Below are positions 6,475 to 20,138 of a stretch of 39,091 nt of DNA, piece by piece. Every line of letters begins with the position of its first letter. The first letter of the stretch is position 1. Below the pieces are notes generated by a model that was given only the letters and a program-made list of their open reading frames with translations, ran no database searches and had not been told where the DNA came from. The DNA is from Escherichia phage vB_EcoP_LNA5, in sequence record MZ311861.1; one strand, 5' to 3'. The position numbers were made by a program, and so were the translations under genes.

Positions 6475-6553
6475 TGGCGTCTCCACGGGGATTCGAACCC
6501 TAATCGCAATAGGCCATCACGACCCGCCGCTCTACCGTTTGAGCTATGGAGAC
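6475..6553 (-). ncRNA. tRNA-like element (pseudo-tRNA?): canonical acceptor stem, D-arm, T-loop and encoded CCA, but no foldable anticodon arm
   Basis: Minus strand GTCTCCA-TA-GCTCAAACGGTAGAGC-..-TTCGAAT-..-TGGAGAC-G-CCA: perfect 7-bp acceptor stem, D-arm GCTC/GAGC with GG, T-loop TTCGAAT. The 26 nt between the D and T arms do not form a 5-bp stem with a U33/R37 loop by hand folding. Confidence 0.35.
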
Positions 6554-6601: not shown

Positions 6602-6620
6602 CCCTACGGTGATAGTTTAG
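6602..6620 (-). promoter_or_regulatory. variant phage promoter (CACCGTAGG core; phi3.8/4 position)
   Basis: ccctacggtgatagtttag: two substitutions at -4/-3 relative to the window consensus; overlaps the lysozyme stop as other copies overlap upstream gene ends. Confidence 0.45.
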
Positions 6621-12087: not shown

Positions 12088-14769
12088 TTAAGCGAATGCA
12101 AAGTCTGAAGACAAGATGTCTTCGATATTTAGTTTACCTTTCTTCGGAAGCTCAGGCAACTTGTCGCGCTGACTTTCATGAAGCTGGTATTCAAACTGCT
12201 CGTAGAAGTCAAGCAGCACATCGTTATCGCGGTAAGTCTCTACCATCGTCTCACGGACTCCACGGAACAGATACTCAGCGTCAGCCGGGATGGTCCCGAA
12301 GCTATCGTGAATCACTGCGAATGACATCACGCCATACTTTCGGTTAGTGTGGACTACAGTCTTGCGGAGGTGGCTACCATCTTGTGAGTGGACGAAGTTC
12401 GGGCTAATGCCTGACTCCTGCTTGTGCTTGTCCAGCTCTTTCTTCGTGCCTTTGTTGACGGTAGGCTGAAGGTTGAATGACCCTAAGAACATCAGGTTCA
12501 GACGAGTGGTGTCCTTCTTGCGGTATTCCTGCCAGACAGGGAAACCATCAGGTGTGACCCAGTGTACCGGAAGGCAAGGCTTCAGGATTTCTCCAGTCTT
12601 CTTGTCCTTCACCTCAGCAGCCAGCAGCTTGGCAGCACCTTGAAGCCACTTCATCGCGTCAACCGCAGCAACTACTGTCACACTCACAGCTTCCCAAATC
12701 ATCTTTGCCATGAAGCGAGACGCTTGGCTTGGTTCAGTGAACATAGCGCCAGACCCTGAGTCAATCGCTGGCATCACGATGTCCTCGTAAACTTGGTCTG
12801 CGAAGCCGTACTCTTTCGACCCGTATGCCAGAGTCATGACTGAACGCTTAGTGACCTTGCGTGACATACCGTATGTCAGCCACTGACGGGCCAGCTCTCG
12901 TGTCCCCAGCTTGATACGTTCGGTAATCTCACCAGTTTTCTTATCCTCGTGAGTGACCATCTCGTTGTCAGTGCCGTTAATCAGCAGTACTTTAAGCTGC
13001 TCCTCAATGCGGTCAGACACAATGCGGTAGATGTCTTGTACCTTACCGGATGGCGTCAGGTTTACTGCATGTCCACCGATGTGGTCACGAAGCATAGCGC
13101 TGAAGTGCTGAATCCCAGAGCAGGACCCATCGAACGCTATCGGCAGCGAGCAGGAGTAAGACAAGCCGTGGTGCATTACGCCAGCATACTCGAAGCAGAA
13201 CGCTAGGAAGCAGAACGGAGAGTCTAACTTGCCCCACCACTCAATGCTATCCATCGGTGCCTTGGCAGCAGCCATGATGTTGTCGTGGTTATCTTCCACC
13301 CACTTGATACGCTCCTCGAAGGTGACTTTATCGACACCCGCGCAGTTTGCACCGTGGACCTTCAGCCATTTGAAACCATCAGCACCAATAGGCTTACCGA
13401 CTGCCAGAGTCAGAAGACCCTTTTGCATGTCGTTACCCTGAGGGTTGAACATCGGCACAGCGTAGACGCGACCGCGCCAGTCCATGTTATACGGGAACCA
13501 GATGGCCTTGAACTGAGAGAACTTGTTCGCTTGGTTGACGATAAAGCTCAGTGACAATCTTCGTGACTGTCTGGCCTTCTCGCGGCGATAGATACCAGCA
13601 GCAGCCTTCTTCCATGCCTTGAGTTCTTCTTCAGTCTCACCCGCATAGTCCTCAGGCTTCAGCGGTTCCATCTGAGGGAGGTCATCAATAGGCGTGTTGT
13701 TCAGCTTCTCGACCTTGTTCACCACGTCCAATACCTTCTTGTTCACTTTCCAAGGTGTATTCTGGATGATATTCACAGCGTCATAGACTTCAGGCATGTA
13801 TACGTCTTCATAACGTGCTACCGCAGACTTAGACCCTAAGCGAATCAATGGTAACGGTCTGCGACCTTTGGCCCAGTACCCACCACCTACGACACCAGTC
13901 CACGGCTTAGGTGGAACGACGCAAGGCTGGTAGACTGGGGCGATACCCGCAAGGCTGAATCCTCGTTGTGCCATCTTCTTGACCCAGAAGTCTGACAGGT
14001 GGACCATCTCTACGTCAGCCGCTGCATTACCAGCACCGTACCGCTTAAGCTCGACCAGTTGTGTTGACTGGATGACAATCTCGAGCATCTTGATGCCAAC
14101 GTGGACGGCCTCTGTAGGACTCCAAGTCCCCCACGCATCTTCCAGTTGGCCTTGCTCCAGCATGGACGCCTCGACCGCTTGCATGTAGGCTTTCTTGTAT
14201 GACGCCCCGGCCCGCTTATTCAGGTTATCAGCTATCGCCTTCTTGAAGTGCTCTTTCTCTTTGTCACGGATGCGACCGAAGCGGATTTCGTCCTCAAGTG
14301 TGCGACCTATCGCTGAGGCCATAGGTGTAATCGGGATCCCTTCAGGCTTGACCAGCTTGGAGAGTATGACCTTCAGTACGATAACCGCAGCAGACTCACA
14401 GGAGATGCGCAGAGATCGTTCCTTTACGGCCTTCTCTTCAGTGCTCAACATGGTGAACGCTACACTCGGACGAGAGGTTGACAGCTTCCCGTCTTGGCCT
14501 TCGTGCCACTCCCTGACGGCTTGCGCAATCTTAGGGACCAGAGTCTGCATCAAAGGCTTGGCGACCTGATTGTCTGCCAGTTCCCCGCGCTCGGTCTGGC
14601 GCTCAAGGTTCTTGATGAAACGTCGCTCGCCTTCTGTATATGCCTCATGCTCAAGCTGAAGCTGTTTGACTGCAAGGTCTTGCCCGTAGTGGTCGGCCAG
14701 CAGGTTAAACGGCTCAATGGCGTTCGACACATCAGAGAAGTCGTGTTTGTCAATAGAGATGACGCTCAT
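12088..14769 (-). CDS. single-subunit DNA-directed RNA polymerase gp1
   Basis: 893-aa ORF collinear with recalled T7 RNA polymerase (..IPFNTLADHYG.., ..WFPYNMDWRGRVYAV.MFNPQGNDM.KGLLTLA.GKPIG.., ..HDSFGTIPADA.., C-terminal ..SDFAFA). Specificity-loop region reads ..QPTVNKGTKKELDKHKQESG.. versus recalled T7 ..QPTINTNKDSEIDAHKQESG... Confidence 0.98.
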   Translation of the reverse strand: MSVISIDKHDFSDVSNAIEPFNLLADHYGQDLAVKQLQLEHEAYTEGERRFIKNLERQTERGELADNQVAKPLMQTLVPKIAQAVREWHEGQDGKLSTSRPSVAFTMLSTEEKAVKERSLRISCESAAVIVLKVILSKLVKPEGIPITPMASAIGRTLEDEIRFGRIRDKEKEHFKKAIADNLNKRAGASYKKAYMQAVEASMLEQGQLEDAWGTWSPTEAVHVGIKMLEIVIQSTQLVELKRYGAGNAAADVEMVHLSDFWVKKMAQRGFSLAGIAPVYQPCVVPPKPWTGVVGGGYWAKGRRPLPLIRLGSKSAVARYEDVYMPEVYDAVNIIQNTPWKVNKKVLDVVNKVEKLNNTPIDDLPQMEPLKPEDYAGETEEELKAWKKAAAGIYRREKARQSRRLSLSFIVNQANKFSQFKAIWFPYNMDWRGRVYAVPMFNPQGNDMQKGLLTLAVGKPIGADGFKWLKVHGANCAGVDKVTFEERIKWVEDNHDNIMAAAKAPMDSIEWWGKLDSPFCFLAFCFEYAGVMHHGLSYSCSLPIAFDGSCSGIQHFSAMLRDHIGGHAVNLTPSGKVQDIYRIVSDRIEEQLKVLLINGTDNEMVTHEDKKTGEITERIKLGTRELARQWLTYGMSRKVTKRSVMTLAYGSKEYGFADQVYEDIVMPAIDSGSGAMFTEPSQASRFMAKMIWEAVSVTVVAAVDAMKWLQGAAKLLAAEVKDKKTGEILKPCLPVHWVTPDGFPVWQEYRKKDTTRLNLMFLGSFNLQPTVNKGTKKELDKHKQESGISPNFVHSQDGSHLRKTVVHTNRKYGVMSFAVIHDSFGTIPADAEYLFRGVRETMVETYRDNDVLLDFYEQFEYQLHESQRDKLPELPKKGKLNIEDILSSDFAFA

Positions 14770-14842: not shown

Positions 14843-14860
14843 CCTATAGTGATAGTTAAG
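14843..14860 (-). promoter_or_regulatory. phage RNAP promoter immediately upstream of the RNAP gene
   Basis: cctatagtgatagttaag; about 75 bp upstream of the gene 1 ATG. Confidence 0.8.
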
Positions 14861-15497: not shown

Positions 15498-15629
15498 AGT
15501 TAACTCCTATCAATGTAAGTGGTAATCTTTGAGGCCACCTATCAGTCGATGACCTCTCGTCTATCACTCAGTACCATCACGTCAGTGTTATGGTCAAGCT
15601 ATGATTTGGTTCTCTCCTGTTTATTTAGG

Positions 15630-15857
15630 TTACTCGCCGTCTCCTTCTGTAAGGCTATCGTCTATTAATTCAAATTTACCGTTTGAGTGTTGGATAGCCT
15701 CTTGTCCGCAATGGTCGCAAACCACCAGTTTATCGAACCCGTCAAACTCGTCACCTGCTACGCAAGAAAGTACGAATTTATGATTGGTGCATACTTCTTG
15801 CGTTTCACCGAAAATTGCTCGAAAACCTTTGGTTATGGCACCAGTGATTGTGTTCAT
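15630..15857 (-). CDS. Cys-rich small protein (75 aa), possible zinc ribbon
   Basis: GAGGG upstream of ATG; paired Cys motifs (C..C, then CDHC) and an acidic C-terminus; sits downstream of an RNase III-like hairpin. Confidence 0.55.
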   Translation of the reverse strand: MNTITGAITKGFRAIFGETQEVCTNHKFVLSCVAGDEFDGFDKLVVCDHCGQEAIQHSNGKFELIDDSLTEGDGE

Positions 15858-15871
15858 ATCTTCCCTCTCAG

Positions 15872-15928
15872 TTGTTAATGACTATCAGTCAGGCCACCAG
15901 CATTGATGACCTGTAGTCTGTCACTTAG
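15872..15928 (-). promoter_or_regulatory. RNase III-like processing hairpin, class B
   Basis: Shares the gttaGtgactatcagtcaggcc...cctgtagt motif with 16602..16660 and 16919..16983; forms a long imperfect hairpin, as recalled for T7 R1. Confidence 0.5.
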
Positions 15929-16070
15929 CGTGTAAACTGTCGTGTATACGCTTGCGTCTCCTGTAGACCACTTTCAAGAGACGCATAGCCCAATCGTGGT
16001 CTAACTGCCCGGTCTTGACCATAAGCCGGGCGTTAGTGACGTGGTGCTGGCAGAGGCCATAAGTTACCAT
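15921..16070 (-). CDS. gp0.4-like small protein (49 aa)
   Basis: ATG overlaps the Ocr stop (TGATG), as 0.4 does with 0.3 in T7; MVTYGLCQHHVTNARLMVKTGQLDHDWAMRLLKVVYRRRKRIHDSLHAK shares the YGL..W..AM..L pattern with recalled T7 gp0.4. Confidence 0.45.
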   Translation of the reverse strand: MVTYGLCQHHVTNARLMVKTGQLDHDWAMRLLKVVYRRRKRIHDSLHAK

Positions 16071-16573
16071 CACTCGCAGTCCTCAGCCGCAGGGTCGAAC
16101 ACTACGTTATCATTGATGTCTTCCACCTTCAGGTGGCGACCTGCCGCATAGTTAACATTGGCACATGCAGTAGCGACCTCAAGAGCTACAGCTTGCACAA
16201 TTATTGCGCCTGTTTTAGCGTCAACTACCCAATATTCATCCTCTTCGTCTGCCTCTTCATCCTCAAACCAGACTACATCCAAGCTATTAGACACGTCGTT
16301 ATAAAGTGCCTCATAGATGCGAGCTTGTAGGATACGCGTTACGTCCTTGGTTTCAGGTATCATCCCAGAGTCTTCGAACTCGTTGTCTATACCATCAGCA
16401 GCCATCACCGTAAAAATCTCGTGGTAATAGTGTGGAACCTGACCGTCTACGACCTCATGCAGCGCAGCGCTGTAGTCGTCATCTTGAGTCAGGTGGTCGT
16501 ACTGAATACGCTCGATAAATGCCTCAACGGTTGCAGCCAGCAACTCATAGTATGCGTTAGCATTACGTTCCAT
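16070..16573 (-). CDS. ocr: Ocr-like DNA-mimic anti-restriction protein (gene 0.3) with about 50-aa C-terminal extension
   Basis: Residues 1-115 match recalled T7 Ocr (..VPHYY..IF.VMA..GID.EFEDSG..P.TKDV.RILQARIYE..); the ORF then continues past the acidic tail (..DEEADEEDEY) for about 50 more residues; GAGG upstream of ATG. Confidence 0.85.
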   Translation of the reverse strand: MERNANAYYELLAATVEAFIERIQYDHLTQDDDYSAALHEVVDGQVPHYYHEIFTVMAADGIDNEFEDSGMIPETKDVTRILQARIYEALYNDVSNSLDVVWFEDEEADEEDEYWVVDAKTGAIIVQAVALEVATACANVNYAAGRHLKVEDINDNVVFDPAAEDCE

Positions 16574-16601
16574 AGTTATATCCTCTCAAAGTTAATTATG
16601 T

Positions 16602-16660
16602 GTTAGTGACTATCAGTCAGGCCGCTATCAGTCTAACGACCTGTAGTTAATCACTCTCAG
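16602..16660 (-). promoter_or_regulatory. RNase III-like processing hairpin, class B
   Basis: gttagtgactatcagtcaggcc..cctgtagttaatcac: 7-bp outer stem plus CAGG/CCUG inner stem with internal loop; lies between the first early ORF and ocr. Confidence 0.5.
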
Positions 16661-16902
16661 TTAGTGAAATAAGGAGCTGAGACGCCCACTGTAGGACTCA
16701 CGGTTATCTGCGAGTCTATCAGGTATGTCTCGTTGTCTATACGCACAGTATCGACGCTGTAGTTGCTGAACTGCTTGCTTGATACCTTGCGCACTACCAC
16801 ACGGTGACGCGCTCCTGTCATCTCTTTAAGCTGAATCCACGCATAACCTTTAGTGTTCACGAATACTTCATTGCGATTAGTGATTGTGCTTAAGTGTTTC
16901 AT
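16657..16902 (-). CDS. first early gene: hypothetical protein (81 aa)
   Basis: ATG at 16902 with AAGGA 9 nt upstream (track ATG at 16911 has no spacing); first ORF downstream of the host-type promoter and RNase III-like hairpin; no motif recognised. Confidence 0.5.
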   Translation of the reverse strand: MKHLSTITNRNEVFVNTKGYAWIQLKEMTGARHRVVVRKVSSKQFSNYSVDTVRIDNETYLIDSQITVSPTVGVSAPYFTN

Positions 16903-16918
16903 AGTGTCCATCCTTTAA

Positions 16919-16983
16919 GTTAGTGACTATCAGTCAGGGCCTTTGAGTCTACATCTGAAGGCCCTGTAGTTAGTCGCTATCGG
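16919..16983 (-). promoter_or_regulatory. RNase III-like processing hairpin, class B (R0.3 position)
   Basis: agtgactatcagtcagggcc-(18-nt loop)-ggccctgtagttagtcgct, a long imperfect inverted repeat. Confidence 0.5.
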
Positions 16984-17088
16984 CGCACATTAAGAGTTTA
17001 TCCAGATTGTTAAAGAGCATTCCCTTCAGTCAGAGGACTTCAGGTAGACCATTCAGTGTTGGTCATCACCGTTGTTTCGATGTGGTAC

Positions 17089-17370: not shown

Positions 17371-17491
17371 CTGTAGGTCTATGACTGTAGGTGTTGGTGT
17401 CTTATGGTTGAGACTGTAGGTTAGTGAGACTGTAGGTTATGACTTATGGTTGTGAGAGGTAGGCTGTGACCTATGGTTGTGACTTATGGTT
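17371..17491. repeat. array of short direct repeats in the genome-terminal region
   Basis: Plus-strand (g)actgtaggt four times and (ga)cttatggtt four times; on the phage strand ACCTACAGT / AACCATAAG, resembling the recalled T7 CCTAAAG repeats near the terminal repetition. Confidence 0.6.
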
Positions 17492-17718
17492 ATACAGATA
17501 GAGACTCAAAGAAGACCCATAGTCCCAACCTATCGTCCTTCCCTAAGCCATAGCCTCAGCCTATCGTTGACCTTAAGTCTTGACCATCTGTCCAACCTTA
17601 TGATAGACTGGCACGGGTAGGGCCTTTGGTCTGGACTGAAAGAGGGCCTATGGGGAGACTTGAGGTTCTTGAAGTGTGAGATGTGGTCTCAAACTTTTGG
17701 TCCAAAACTCATCGTCAC

Positions 17719-18374: not shown

Positions 18375-20138
18375 CTAGTGGAACGTAACGTATGACCCTA
18401 GTCCCAGCTCGTCGTCCGTATCGTGAGTTACCCGGACCCCATTGTCCCAGAACTCAGTGTGGATGGACTCGAAGCCTTTCCGTGGGTTCTCCATCTGTTC
18501 CTCCAGCCACTCCTCAGTGACTTCACGTTCGCCTTTGTTGGCATCCTTAGCCATAGACTCAACGAAGAACTGTACACCGATAGCCAGCGCATCAAGTCGG
18601 TCATCGTGTGCCAAGGCTCCACGTTCGCGAGATATACGTGTCATCTGGTAGAAGAGAGAGTAGATAGGGTTACGAACACCATCCTTATCAGAGGCCGACT
18701 GGTAGTCTTGGACGATAGCAGCAGCGTTAACGATAAGTCGGTGAGACCCCATGATAGGCTCCAGAACGTCACAGATGCGGAGTTCCTTCTGACCCTTACT
18801 CTTCACTTCAGTTACAGCAGCAGGATGGATACGGGCCGCTACAGGCTTGAATAGCTCAAGGTACATACCATCGCCGAAGTTACCCTCAATGACGTATTCG
18901 TTGACCTTCCACTTACGACCAATCTTAGCCAGTGCTTCCATCGTTGAGTCCTCATACCCACCGCGCATACCACCAGCTTCCATCACGAAGATGTAGCCGT
19001 TGAGCTGGTACAGAACAGCGTAGCCAGTCTCATCCTTACCACGACCACTAGGGTCAATGACCAGAATCTTCTGAGTGTACGCGCTGAAGGCAGAGCCTAC
19101 AGTCTGATACGTATGGTAGGAATCACCCATGAGTCCAACGTTAGGAACGTCCTCACGCTTGTTCTGAGGGTTCGGCAACCATTGGTAGACCATTGGGCTT
19201 GACTCTGGGTCCAAGTCGGCTACGATAAGGTCACGGAGCTTAAGAGGGTACTTCTCGGCATCACTCAGGTTCGGGTTAAGCATGAACTGTAGAGCGAAGC
19301 CAGCTTTACCGTAGGACAGCTCACGTTCCTTCAGGTCCGTATCATCGAAGCGTACTTCATCAGTCGGACGCCAGTAGAAGGACTCAGGGTCCTCTTCCAG
19401 CTCTGCCTGAAGCATAGGAGCCAGACGGTCGCCGTAAGACTGCCAGTCCTTCCTGTCGCGTGGATAACGAGCGGGCCAGATAGTAGTGGTGTACCCACGA
19501 CCTTCCAGCTCACGGTACAGGGTCATCTCGTTCTGAGGAGTGCCCAGATAGATGATTGTACCTCCCGGCTTCAGGATAGCGTCGAACTCTTTTACAAGCT
19601 CTGACAGACGGTCTCTCGCAGCCTGAGTAGCAGAGTTGTTTGGAACCTCCACGTCATCGGCAATCAGGATGTCAGCACGACTACCAGTCAACTGACCAGT
19701 GATACCAACGGACTTAACCGAAGGTGAGTGGTCTGGCTTGGCTGGACCAACGTCGAAGCTGATAACCGCATCTCGCTGTCCCTGCTTAGGTTTGAGTTCC
19801 TGAAGCTGAGGCATGAGGTCGATGATTCGCTTGATGAATATGGAGTTAGCATCGGCTCGTTCCTTTGAGGCCGACACAATCATGAACTTCAAGTCTGGGT
19901 TGTTCCATAGTTTCCAGACCACGAAACCACAGGTCAGAAACGACTTGCCAATACCACGGAACGCCTGAAGGATGAAGCGGCGATTATCCCCAGCAGCCAG
20001 CTTCTTACACATATCTATCTGGCAGCGGGTTGGAACCGGAAGGCTAAGAGCTTTCCAGAGAACGAAGATGAAGAACACGAAGTCTTCCTTCATACGTGCA
20101 GTCATTAGCGCCTGACGCGCCACTAAGTCTTTACTCAA
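18375..20138 (-). CDS. terminase large subunit gp19
   Basis: Recalled collinear similarity to T7 gp19 (..[39 protein letters not shown].., ..[26 protein letters not shown].., ..[31 protein letters not shown]..). Start codon is TTG (AGGAGGT 6 nt upstream), overlapping the 18.5 stop. Confidence 0.97.

Follow-up and report, generated by a model that had tools for sequence, protein, structure and literature searches.

Ocr is the textbook DNA-mimic anti-restriction protein; it blocks BREX and triggers PARIS, and in the structure of the T7 protein the long helix at the C-terminus of the core is directed towards the dimer tips. To our knowledge, all the mechanistic work on Ocr has been carried out with the 117-aa protein of T7. 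The Ocr core dimerizes through the F54 interface, mimics bent DNA, blocks type I restriction-modification systems and the BREX protein PglX, and can be sensed by PARIS (PMC3439906, PMC7261183, PMC11341690, PMC9122126). F54, a residue of the dimer interface, is required for dimerization and for full activity against restriction-modification and BREX, and F54V is a PARIS-escape mutation (PMC9122126). A longer gene 0.3 has been in the databases since the genome of K1F, the type phage of the genus Kayfunavirus, was deposited (gp0.3, 510 nt), and is routine for the genus. What appears to be new here is the extra domain as such, together with its optional nature, for neither of which, nor for any function of the extension, could we find a description in the literature (the original K1F genome description was outside the scope of this search); no published inhibition test of any long-form Ocr was found in the literature either.

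Gene identity and genomic context

The window analyzed here, the whole 39,091-nt stretch of Escherichia phage vB_EcoP_LNA5 (MZ311861.1), is the complete, circularly permuted genome of a K1F-like podovirus of the genus Kayfunavirus, in which the minus strand carries all genes. Its gene 0.3 (ocr) is a complete CDS at 16070..16573 (minus strand) that starts with ATG and encodes 167 aa plus a stop, as established from the ORF listing, from a match of the 167-aa protein to PHROG 2568 'ocr-like anti-restriction' (E = 1.2e-51) and from the annotated copies in LM33_P1 and 101118UKE1. The first-pass annotation had described a protein of 167 aa against 117 in T7 which matches Ocr over its first part and then runs on in frame, and all of this is correct: the ORF has that length, Pfam PF08684 'ocr' covers residues 8-94 (E = 5e-28; 98 bits against a cut-off of 25), and residues 11-116 of T7 Ocr (1s7z) align to residues 11-113 of the query (E = 1.2e-23, phmmer versus PDB). 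The DNA-mimic core, delimited by PF08684, the 1s7z alignment and the AlphaFold2 (AF2) helices, comprises residues 1-103 (16265..16573, minus strand) and is all-helical, with helices at 2-26, 35-69 and 75-95 and no strands in residues 1-95 of a model of moderate confidence (pLDDT 49-90). It has a net charge of -16 over its 103 residues (pI 4.1), and F54, which corresponds by alignment to F54 of T7, is invariant in 35 homologues. The protein resembles T7 Ocr in this acidic homologous core and in F54, and also in its setting, as the first early gene, which follows the early promoters, precedes the RNA polymerase gene and lies between RNase III-like hairpins. Judged by its sequence, it is a member of the Ocr family and an ordinary allele of K1F gp0.3. 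By extension from what is known of the family, the core of the window protein would be expected to dimerize, to block type I restriction-modification and BREX, and to be sensed by PARIS.

Read along the minus strand, the large terminase subunit (18375-20138) comes first, followed by the non-coding left end of the genome with the early promoters, a gp0.2-like ORF of 84 aa (16657-16911), ocr, gp0.35, further small ORFs and the T7-type RNA polymerase (12088-14769). The ocr locus is syntenic with K1F genes 0.2, 0.3 and 0.35, which places it at the gene 0.3 position of a T7-like early region, and over 15600-17000 the genome shows 98.6-99.3% identity with the Escherichia phages vB_EcoM_SHAK9454, LM33_P1 and vB_EcoP-101118UKE1. 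The next gene after ocr, a small gene of the K1F gp0.35 type (15921-16073, minus strand), was assigned from the K1F annotation, the ORF listing and Pfam searches on homologous ORFs, and it is from these homologous ORFs that the assignment to PF26807 Phage_T7_GP04 (the T7 gp0.4 family) is taken. Its start ATG overlaps the ocr stop codon (TGATG), and a Shine-Dalgarno-like GAGGA lies inside the EDCE codons of ocr. The gene is predicted from this arrangement to be translationally coupled to ocr, which would constrain the 3' end of Ocr.

Several other features of the genome were noted. Three related intergenic hairpins on the minus strand flank gene 0.3 and its neighbours (15866-15935, 16594-16668 and 16911-16990); they have minimum free energies of -20 to -24 kcal/mol (z -2.3 to -4.3) and share a conserved lower stem (GUGAnUAACUAC ... 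GAUAGUCAC), while their upper stems differ yet stay paired. By analogy, they look like RNase III processing sites of the kind found in T7 early mRNA. The motif TTAACTATCACTATAGG has 11 matches, on the coding strand only, against 0.14 expected by chance, and these eleven sites are evidently phage RNA polymerase promoters, as far as their sequence tells. One perfect copy, at 14843-14859 (minus strand), is located approximately 75 nt upstream of the start of the RNA polymerase gene (14769) and would let the polymerase transcribe its own gene. Directly downstream of another promoter-like site (6603-6619), between the amidase and primase/helicase genes, there is a tRNA-like element (6475-6553, minus strand) that scores 36.7 bits with the Rfam tRNA model (gathering score 29) and is called tRNA-Thr(CGU) by ARAGORN; 109 phage records contain it, conserved to 99% or more, and these annotate it variously as tRNA-Thr, as tRNA-OTHER, as a pseudo-tRNA or not at all. 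Lastly, four copies of short direct repeats similar to GTGACTTATGGTTGTGA occupy non-coding DNA between the terminase and the early genes (17390-17495), near the expected position of the genome ends and concatemer junction of a T7-like phage.

The extension is real coding sequence

Past the Ocr core, the frame stays open through YWVVDAKTGAIIVQAVALEVATACANVNYAAGRHLKVEDINDNVVFDPAAEDCE (YWVVDAKTG...FDPAAEDCE, residues 114-167). An open frame of 54 codons has a probability of about 0.07 of arising by chance, and its presence is not significant by itself. The same 504-nt CDS is annotated, however, in the independently sequenced phages LM33_P1 and vB_EcoP-101118UKE1, and in a collection of 5.8 billion protein clusters at least 118 of the 120 best clusters cover the whole query with proteins 162-179 aa long, the two exceptions among these 120 being deletion or fusion variants themselves. 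When the 54-residue extension alone was used as the query (tblastn), it was found in 70 phage records, each time within a gene annotated as Ocr or antirestriction. The extension has a median pairwise dN/dS of 0.28 (Nei-Gojobori, 12 long alleles) where the core has 0.15, at nearly equal dS (0.59 versus 0.53), and this equality of dS indicates that the constraint acts on the protein and not on the DNA. The conservation among clusters, the 70 records and a dN/dS of about 0.28 together establish the extension as real coding sequence.

The first-pass annotation had considered, besides a fusion, that two genes might have been joined by a frameshift artefact. In that case a frameshift or assembly error, namely an indel in the acidic tail, would connect gene 0.3 to a separate small gene downstream. 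Metagenome assemblies of three sequencing runs do in fact contain a one-nucleotide insertion (TGGG to TGGGG) that falls precisely on the domain boundary and produces ORFs of 117 and 59 aa, so frameshifts at this position do occur, or at least get called. This split form is the rare exception, though, when set against the in-frame form of 166-169 aa present in at least 70 independent phage genomes, K1F among them, and in no fewer than 118 of the 120 best clusters. Furthermore, the 59-aa ORF of the split form begins at an ATG internal to the linker that lacks proper spacing to a ribosome-binding site, and a stand-alone homologue of the domain was found nowhere else in the searches run. The occurrence of the same CDS in independent genomes and the purifying selection at the protein level refute the artefact, which is ruled out by conservation across genomes and to which we assign a practically negligible probability.

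A folded domain on a variable acidic linker

The region following the core can be divided into three parts. Residues 104-113 (EDEEADEEDE; 16235..16264, minus strand) are a poly-acidic linker, recognized by alignment indels, the lowest pLDDT and the highest entropy. Residues 114-161 (YWVVD...VVFDP; 16091..16234, minus strand) constitute the C-terminal accessory domain, also acidic, which was delimited using AF2, dN/dS, motifs and divergent homologues. The gene ends with an acidic tail, AAEDCE, and the stop codon (16070..16090, minus strand), defined by direct reading of the sequence and by a codon comparison of long and short genes. T7 Ocr, by contrast, ends at 117 aa in a short disordered acidic tail, and the window protein adds to this plan a folded domain of 48 residues. 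Modelled alone with AF2 from an alignment of 20 sequences, the extension gave a pLDDT of 93 and a pTM of 0.76, with strands at 2-5, 11-13, 35-38 and 44-46 and a helix at 18-30 (extension numbering) arranged in a compact beta-beta-alpha-beta-beta fold. In the full-length model the domain has a pLDDT of 84-90, residues 107-110 fall below 50 and the pTM is 0.50; this low confidence at the linker and low pTM are what two independent domains joined by a flexible tether should give. The extra C-terminal domain suggested in the first-pass annotation, which had pointed to structure prediction as a way of recognizing it, is thus borne out: the extension is modelled as a separate domain that folds alone, with a low-confidence acidic linker between it and the core. 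We predict with high confidence, on the strength of these models, that the extension is an independently folded, acidic beta-beta-alpha-beta-beta domain.

The linker is made up almost entirely of Asp and Glu, and its length varies from about one residue (CLB_P1) to about 30 (P0098 and P0117). A domain attached by a linker of such variable length is tethered, not rigid, and this bears on the possibility that the domain prolongs the DNA mimic rigidly, so that a longer acidic surface would imitate a longer duplex or reach subunits of the HsdR or PglZ type. In favour of an extended mimic, all lineages have an acidic domain (net charge -3 to -11, pI 4.0-5.1), and it follows the long C-terminal helix of the core. 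No geometry could be fixed, however, by a linker that is predicted to be disordered and measures anywhere from about 1 to about 30 residues, and at -0.06 per residue the domain copy in the window is far less densely charged than T7 Ocr (-0.24). A rigid mimic extension is consequently an improbable explanation.

Within the domain, the YWVVD motif, a TG turn, A134, Y142, G145 and VEDINDNVVFDP are near-invariant. Entropy is highest in the linker (0.89 bits) and higher in the domain (0.64 bits) than in the core (0.31 bits), with the variation of the domain concentrated in the helix and the loop that follows it, notably at positions 123, 132, 141 and 144. A comparison of the window with LM33_P1 found no amino acid differences in the core (dS 0.016) and four in the 48-residue domain (dN 0.047, dS 0.094), all of them at the end of the helix and in the following loop, which could represent either a recombination patch or local diversification. 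The higher variability of the domain and the restriction of the changes to it in this comparison are a hint of an arms race.

Distribution and relatives of the domain

The Ocr core was detected in 572 phage records and the domain in 70 of them. Ten further records contain a divergent domain (28-35% identity), each time fused to an Ocr core, in the phages Stenotrophomonas IME15, Aeromonas PZL-Ah1, Ah152 and avDM11, Escherichia Ebrios and Kosakonia Kc166A. T7 and about 85% of the Ocr-carrying records lack the domain (70-80 of the 572 carry it). Its fold-defining pattern is kept across genera down to 28-35% identity. The existence of Ocr-fused copies this divergent in other genera implies that the fusion is older than the genus. 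Among the closest relatives, K1F gp0.3, LM33_P1 YP_009324477 and CLB_P1 gp0.3 have the same two-domain layout (162-169 aa, 69-98% identity) and the same gp0.2/gp0.35 synteny, and there is no essential difference between the Kayfunavirus 'ocr-like anti-restriction' proteins and the window protein, which is one more allele. The first-pass annotation would, by its own account, be refuted if the extension were known and routine in Ocr homologues; it is indeed routine in Kayfunavirus, K1F included, and in several related genera.

The domain had no family match in Pfam, PHROGs (searched with the domain alone), PADLOC or NCBIfam, and Foldseek found nothing significant in BFVD or the PDB. A DpiA-like helix-turn-helix (PF20714) was considered and rejected, as it reached only 15.3 bits against a cut-off of 27, the corresponding NCBIfam model (DpiA, PRK10046) had E = 0.14, and the predicted fold has a single helix; faint matches of homologues to PepSY, DUF6172 and LEA_3b all fell short of the threshold and did not agree with one another. 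When 1.84 billion representative proteins were searched with a profile of the domain, the only three matches were to repetitive or low-complexity proteins in many short stretches, and we regard them as spurious; since this search missed the long Ocr itself, presumably because a short Ocr is the representative of its 50%-identity cluster, the negative result covers other clusters only. Word-index searches with narrow and broad alignments of the domain recovered split or remnant ocr genes and nothing else, and among the 3892 ORFs of all retrieved loci a local HMM detected those of Ocr only, with no stand-alone copy in the phages that have a short Ocr. The domain was thus found only attached to Ocr.

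The nearest neighbours in fold are the T4 antitoxin Dmd, the ClpS / L7-L12 C-terminal domain and AcrIF9, all of them partial matches without sequence relationship and with scores below the level of homology, from which a functional inference for the domain is not justified. A further candidate is a separate small inhibitor that acts on a host toxin or nuclease in the manner of Dmd or of an Acr protein, and that is fused to Ocr simply for joint expression. The Foldseek probabilities of 0.06-0.07 and identities of 9-18% are, however, in the noise range for an alpha/beta fold of 54 residues, ClpS and L7/L12 score as well or better, and sequence similarity is lacking, all of which makes such an antitoxin or inhibitor quite improbable, a little more so than the rigid mimic considered above.

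Short alleles and rearrangements of the ocr 3' end

A scan of IMG/VR showed that many Ocr genes encode only 110 or 114 aa, with a core 80-85% identical to that of the window; short alleles are also present in phages vB_EcoP_F, PE3-1/JSS1, CR44b and Bas105 ElsieAttenhofer. The short Ocr proteins of Kayfunavirus are similar to the long ones in the core (80-89% identity), in the EEDCE tail and in the downstream gene, and differ from them by the lack of residues ~112-163, a clean in-frame gap flanked by GAGGA-type microhomology. At the codon level, the short gene is the long gene minus the domain, with the EDCE tail and the TGATG overlap with the next gene kept, probably because the GAGGA and TGATG signals of gp0.35 lie within those codons. 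The 114-aa genes end in ...GAA GAG AGT GAC GAG GAG GAC TGC GAG TGA, and the 110-aa genes in ...GCT GAG GAG GAC TGC GAG TGA or ...GAG GGC GAC GAG TGA. There are at least three types of junction, located between short GAGGA-type repeats of acidic codons, although part of this diversity could be ordinary variation in the length of the acidic tail. In one case (L015), the linker of the window (WFEDEEADEE) is followed directly by DCE, so that the protein is in effect the Ocr of the window without the domain. In the best 60 phage records that span the junction, the match runs through unbroken in 25 (short alleles) and is interrupted by the domain segment of about 160 nt in the other 35 (long alleles).

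Long and short alleles are interspersed in the tree of the core, a neighbour-joining tree of 309 nt that has no support values and covers a region of frequent recombination. We saw no fixed differences between the cores of long and short alleles, and no early genes co-varying with the long or short state of Ocr. The history that makes the fewest assumptions is that Ocr and the domain were fused in the distant past, that the domain was then deleted in frame repeatedly through microhomology, and that recombination spread both alleles; there has been at least one independent deletion of the domain, and probably several. The many viable phage isolates without the domain show that it is dispensable.

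The 3' end of ocr is a hotspot for deletion and fusion, in keeping with the classical behaviour of the T7 early region. Rearrangements were observed in L003-L005 (2667-3180 of L003), L068-L070, P0099, P0120, P0127, L036 and L058. Variants at this end of the gene include the +1 G frameshift that separates the domain, an in-frame deletion in which MERNTNAYYD is joined to half of the domain (in three unrelated runs), and fusions of the Ocr core to gp0.35 or to a 75-aa downstream ORF.

A locus of this kind could also harbour a functionless relic of an old gene fusion, drifting along with Ocr and in the process of being lost. Such a relic would agree with the many viable relatives that lack the domain, with the deletions and fusions at the 3' region of the gene (P0099, P0120, P0127, L036 and L058) and with the faster evolution of the domain compared with the core. 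It is difficult to reconcile, on the other hand, with a dN/dS of about 0.28 at a dS equal to that of the core, with a fold-defining pattern that survives at 28-35% identity between genera, with YWVVD and VEDINDNVVFDP motifs that are nearly invariant, or with a confident and compact AF2 fold obtained from a shallow alignment. We consider a relic as improbable as a rigid mimic. The domain is a real facultative accessory domain on a known protein, maintained under purifying selection.

Discussion

Our results make it very probable that the Ocr of K1F-like phages is a two-domain protein, composed of the core, a flexible linker and a folded domain that is optional in these phages. As for the function of the domain, we favour, tentatively, a tethered protein-binding accessory to anti-defence; the variable linker, the lack of co-adaptation with the core, the faster evolution in one patch and the presence/absence polymorphism all point to a tethered accessory role, but at this stage the assignment to a functional class is a possibility and should be taken as such. 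The second function that the first-pass annotation thought a fusion might add to the DNA mimic is, in the same sense, plausible. The explanation as a whole, with the architecture, the optional nature and the proposed accessory role taken together, stands at somewhat better than even.

If the domain acts as such an accessory, two copies would be carried by each Ocr dimer, tethered at its distal tips, and would serve as protein-binding modules through which Ocr gains a wider or altered anti-defence activity. The domain might engage a second host factor, or it might shield Ocr from abortive-infection systems that sense Ocr, such as PARIS. The benefit of the domain could be limited to some hosts, and a benefit of this kind would account for a domain that is both maintained and missing from many alleles. 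A bolder and less probable version, although more plausible in our opinion than the relic, the rigid mimic or the Dmd-like inhibitor, is that the domain is an unrecognized anti-defence effector carried on Ocr, either evading or neutralizing PARIS-like sensing of Ocr or inhibiting a second, unrelated defence. If this were the case, the presence/absence polymorphism and the variable patch on the helix would be the record of an ongoing arms race.

In a sizeable group of coliphages that are candidates for therapeutic use (K1F, LM33_P1, CLB_P1 and their relatives), Ocr is longer by a folded domain, which is selectively maintained. Even if this domain proves not to alter the target range of Ocr or its evasion of sensors, the idea of an assembly error is corrected and a deletion-prone locus is documented. 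If it does, the domain would be a compact new anti-defence module, and the long and short alleles together would amount to a natural experiment on how counter-defence is built from modules.
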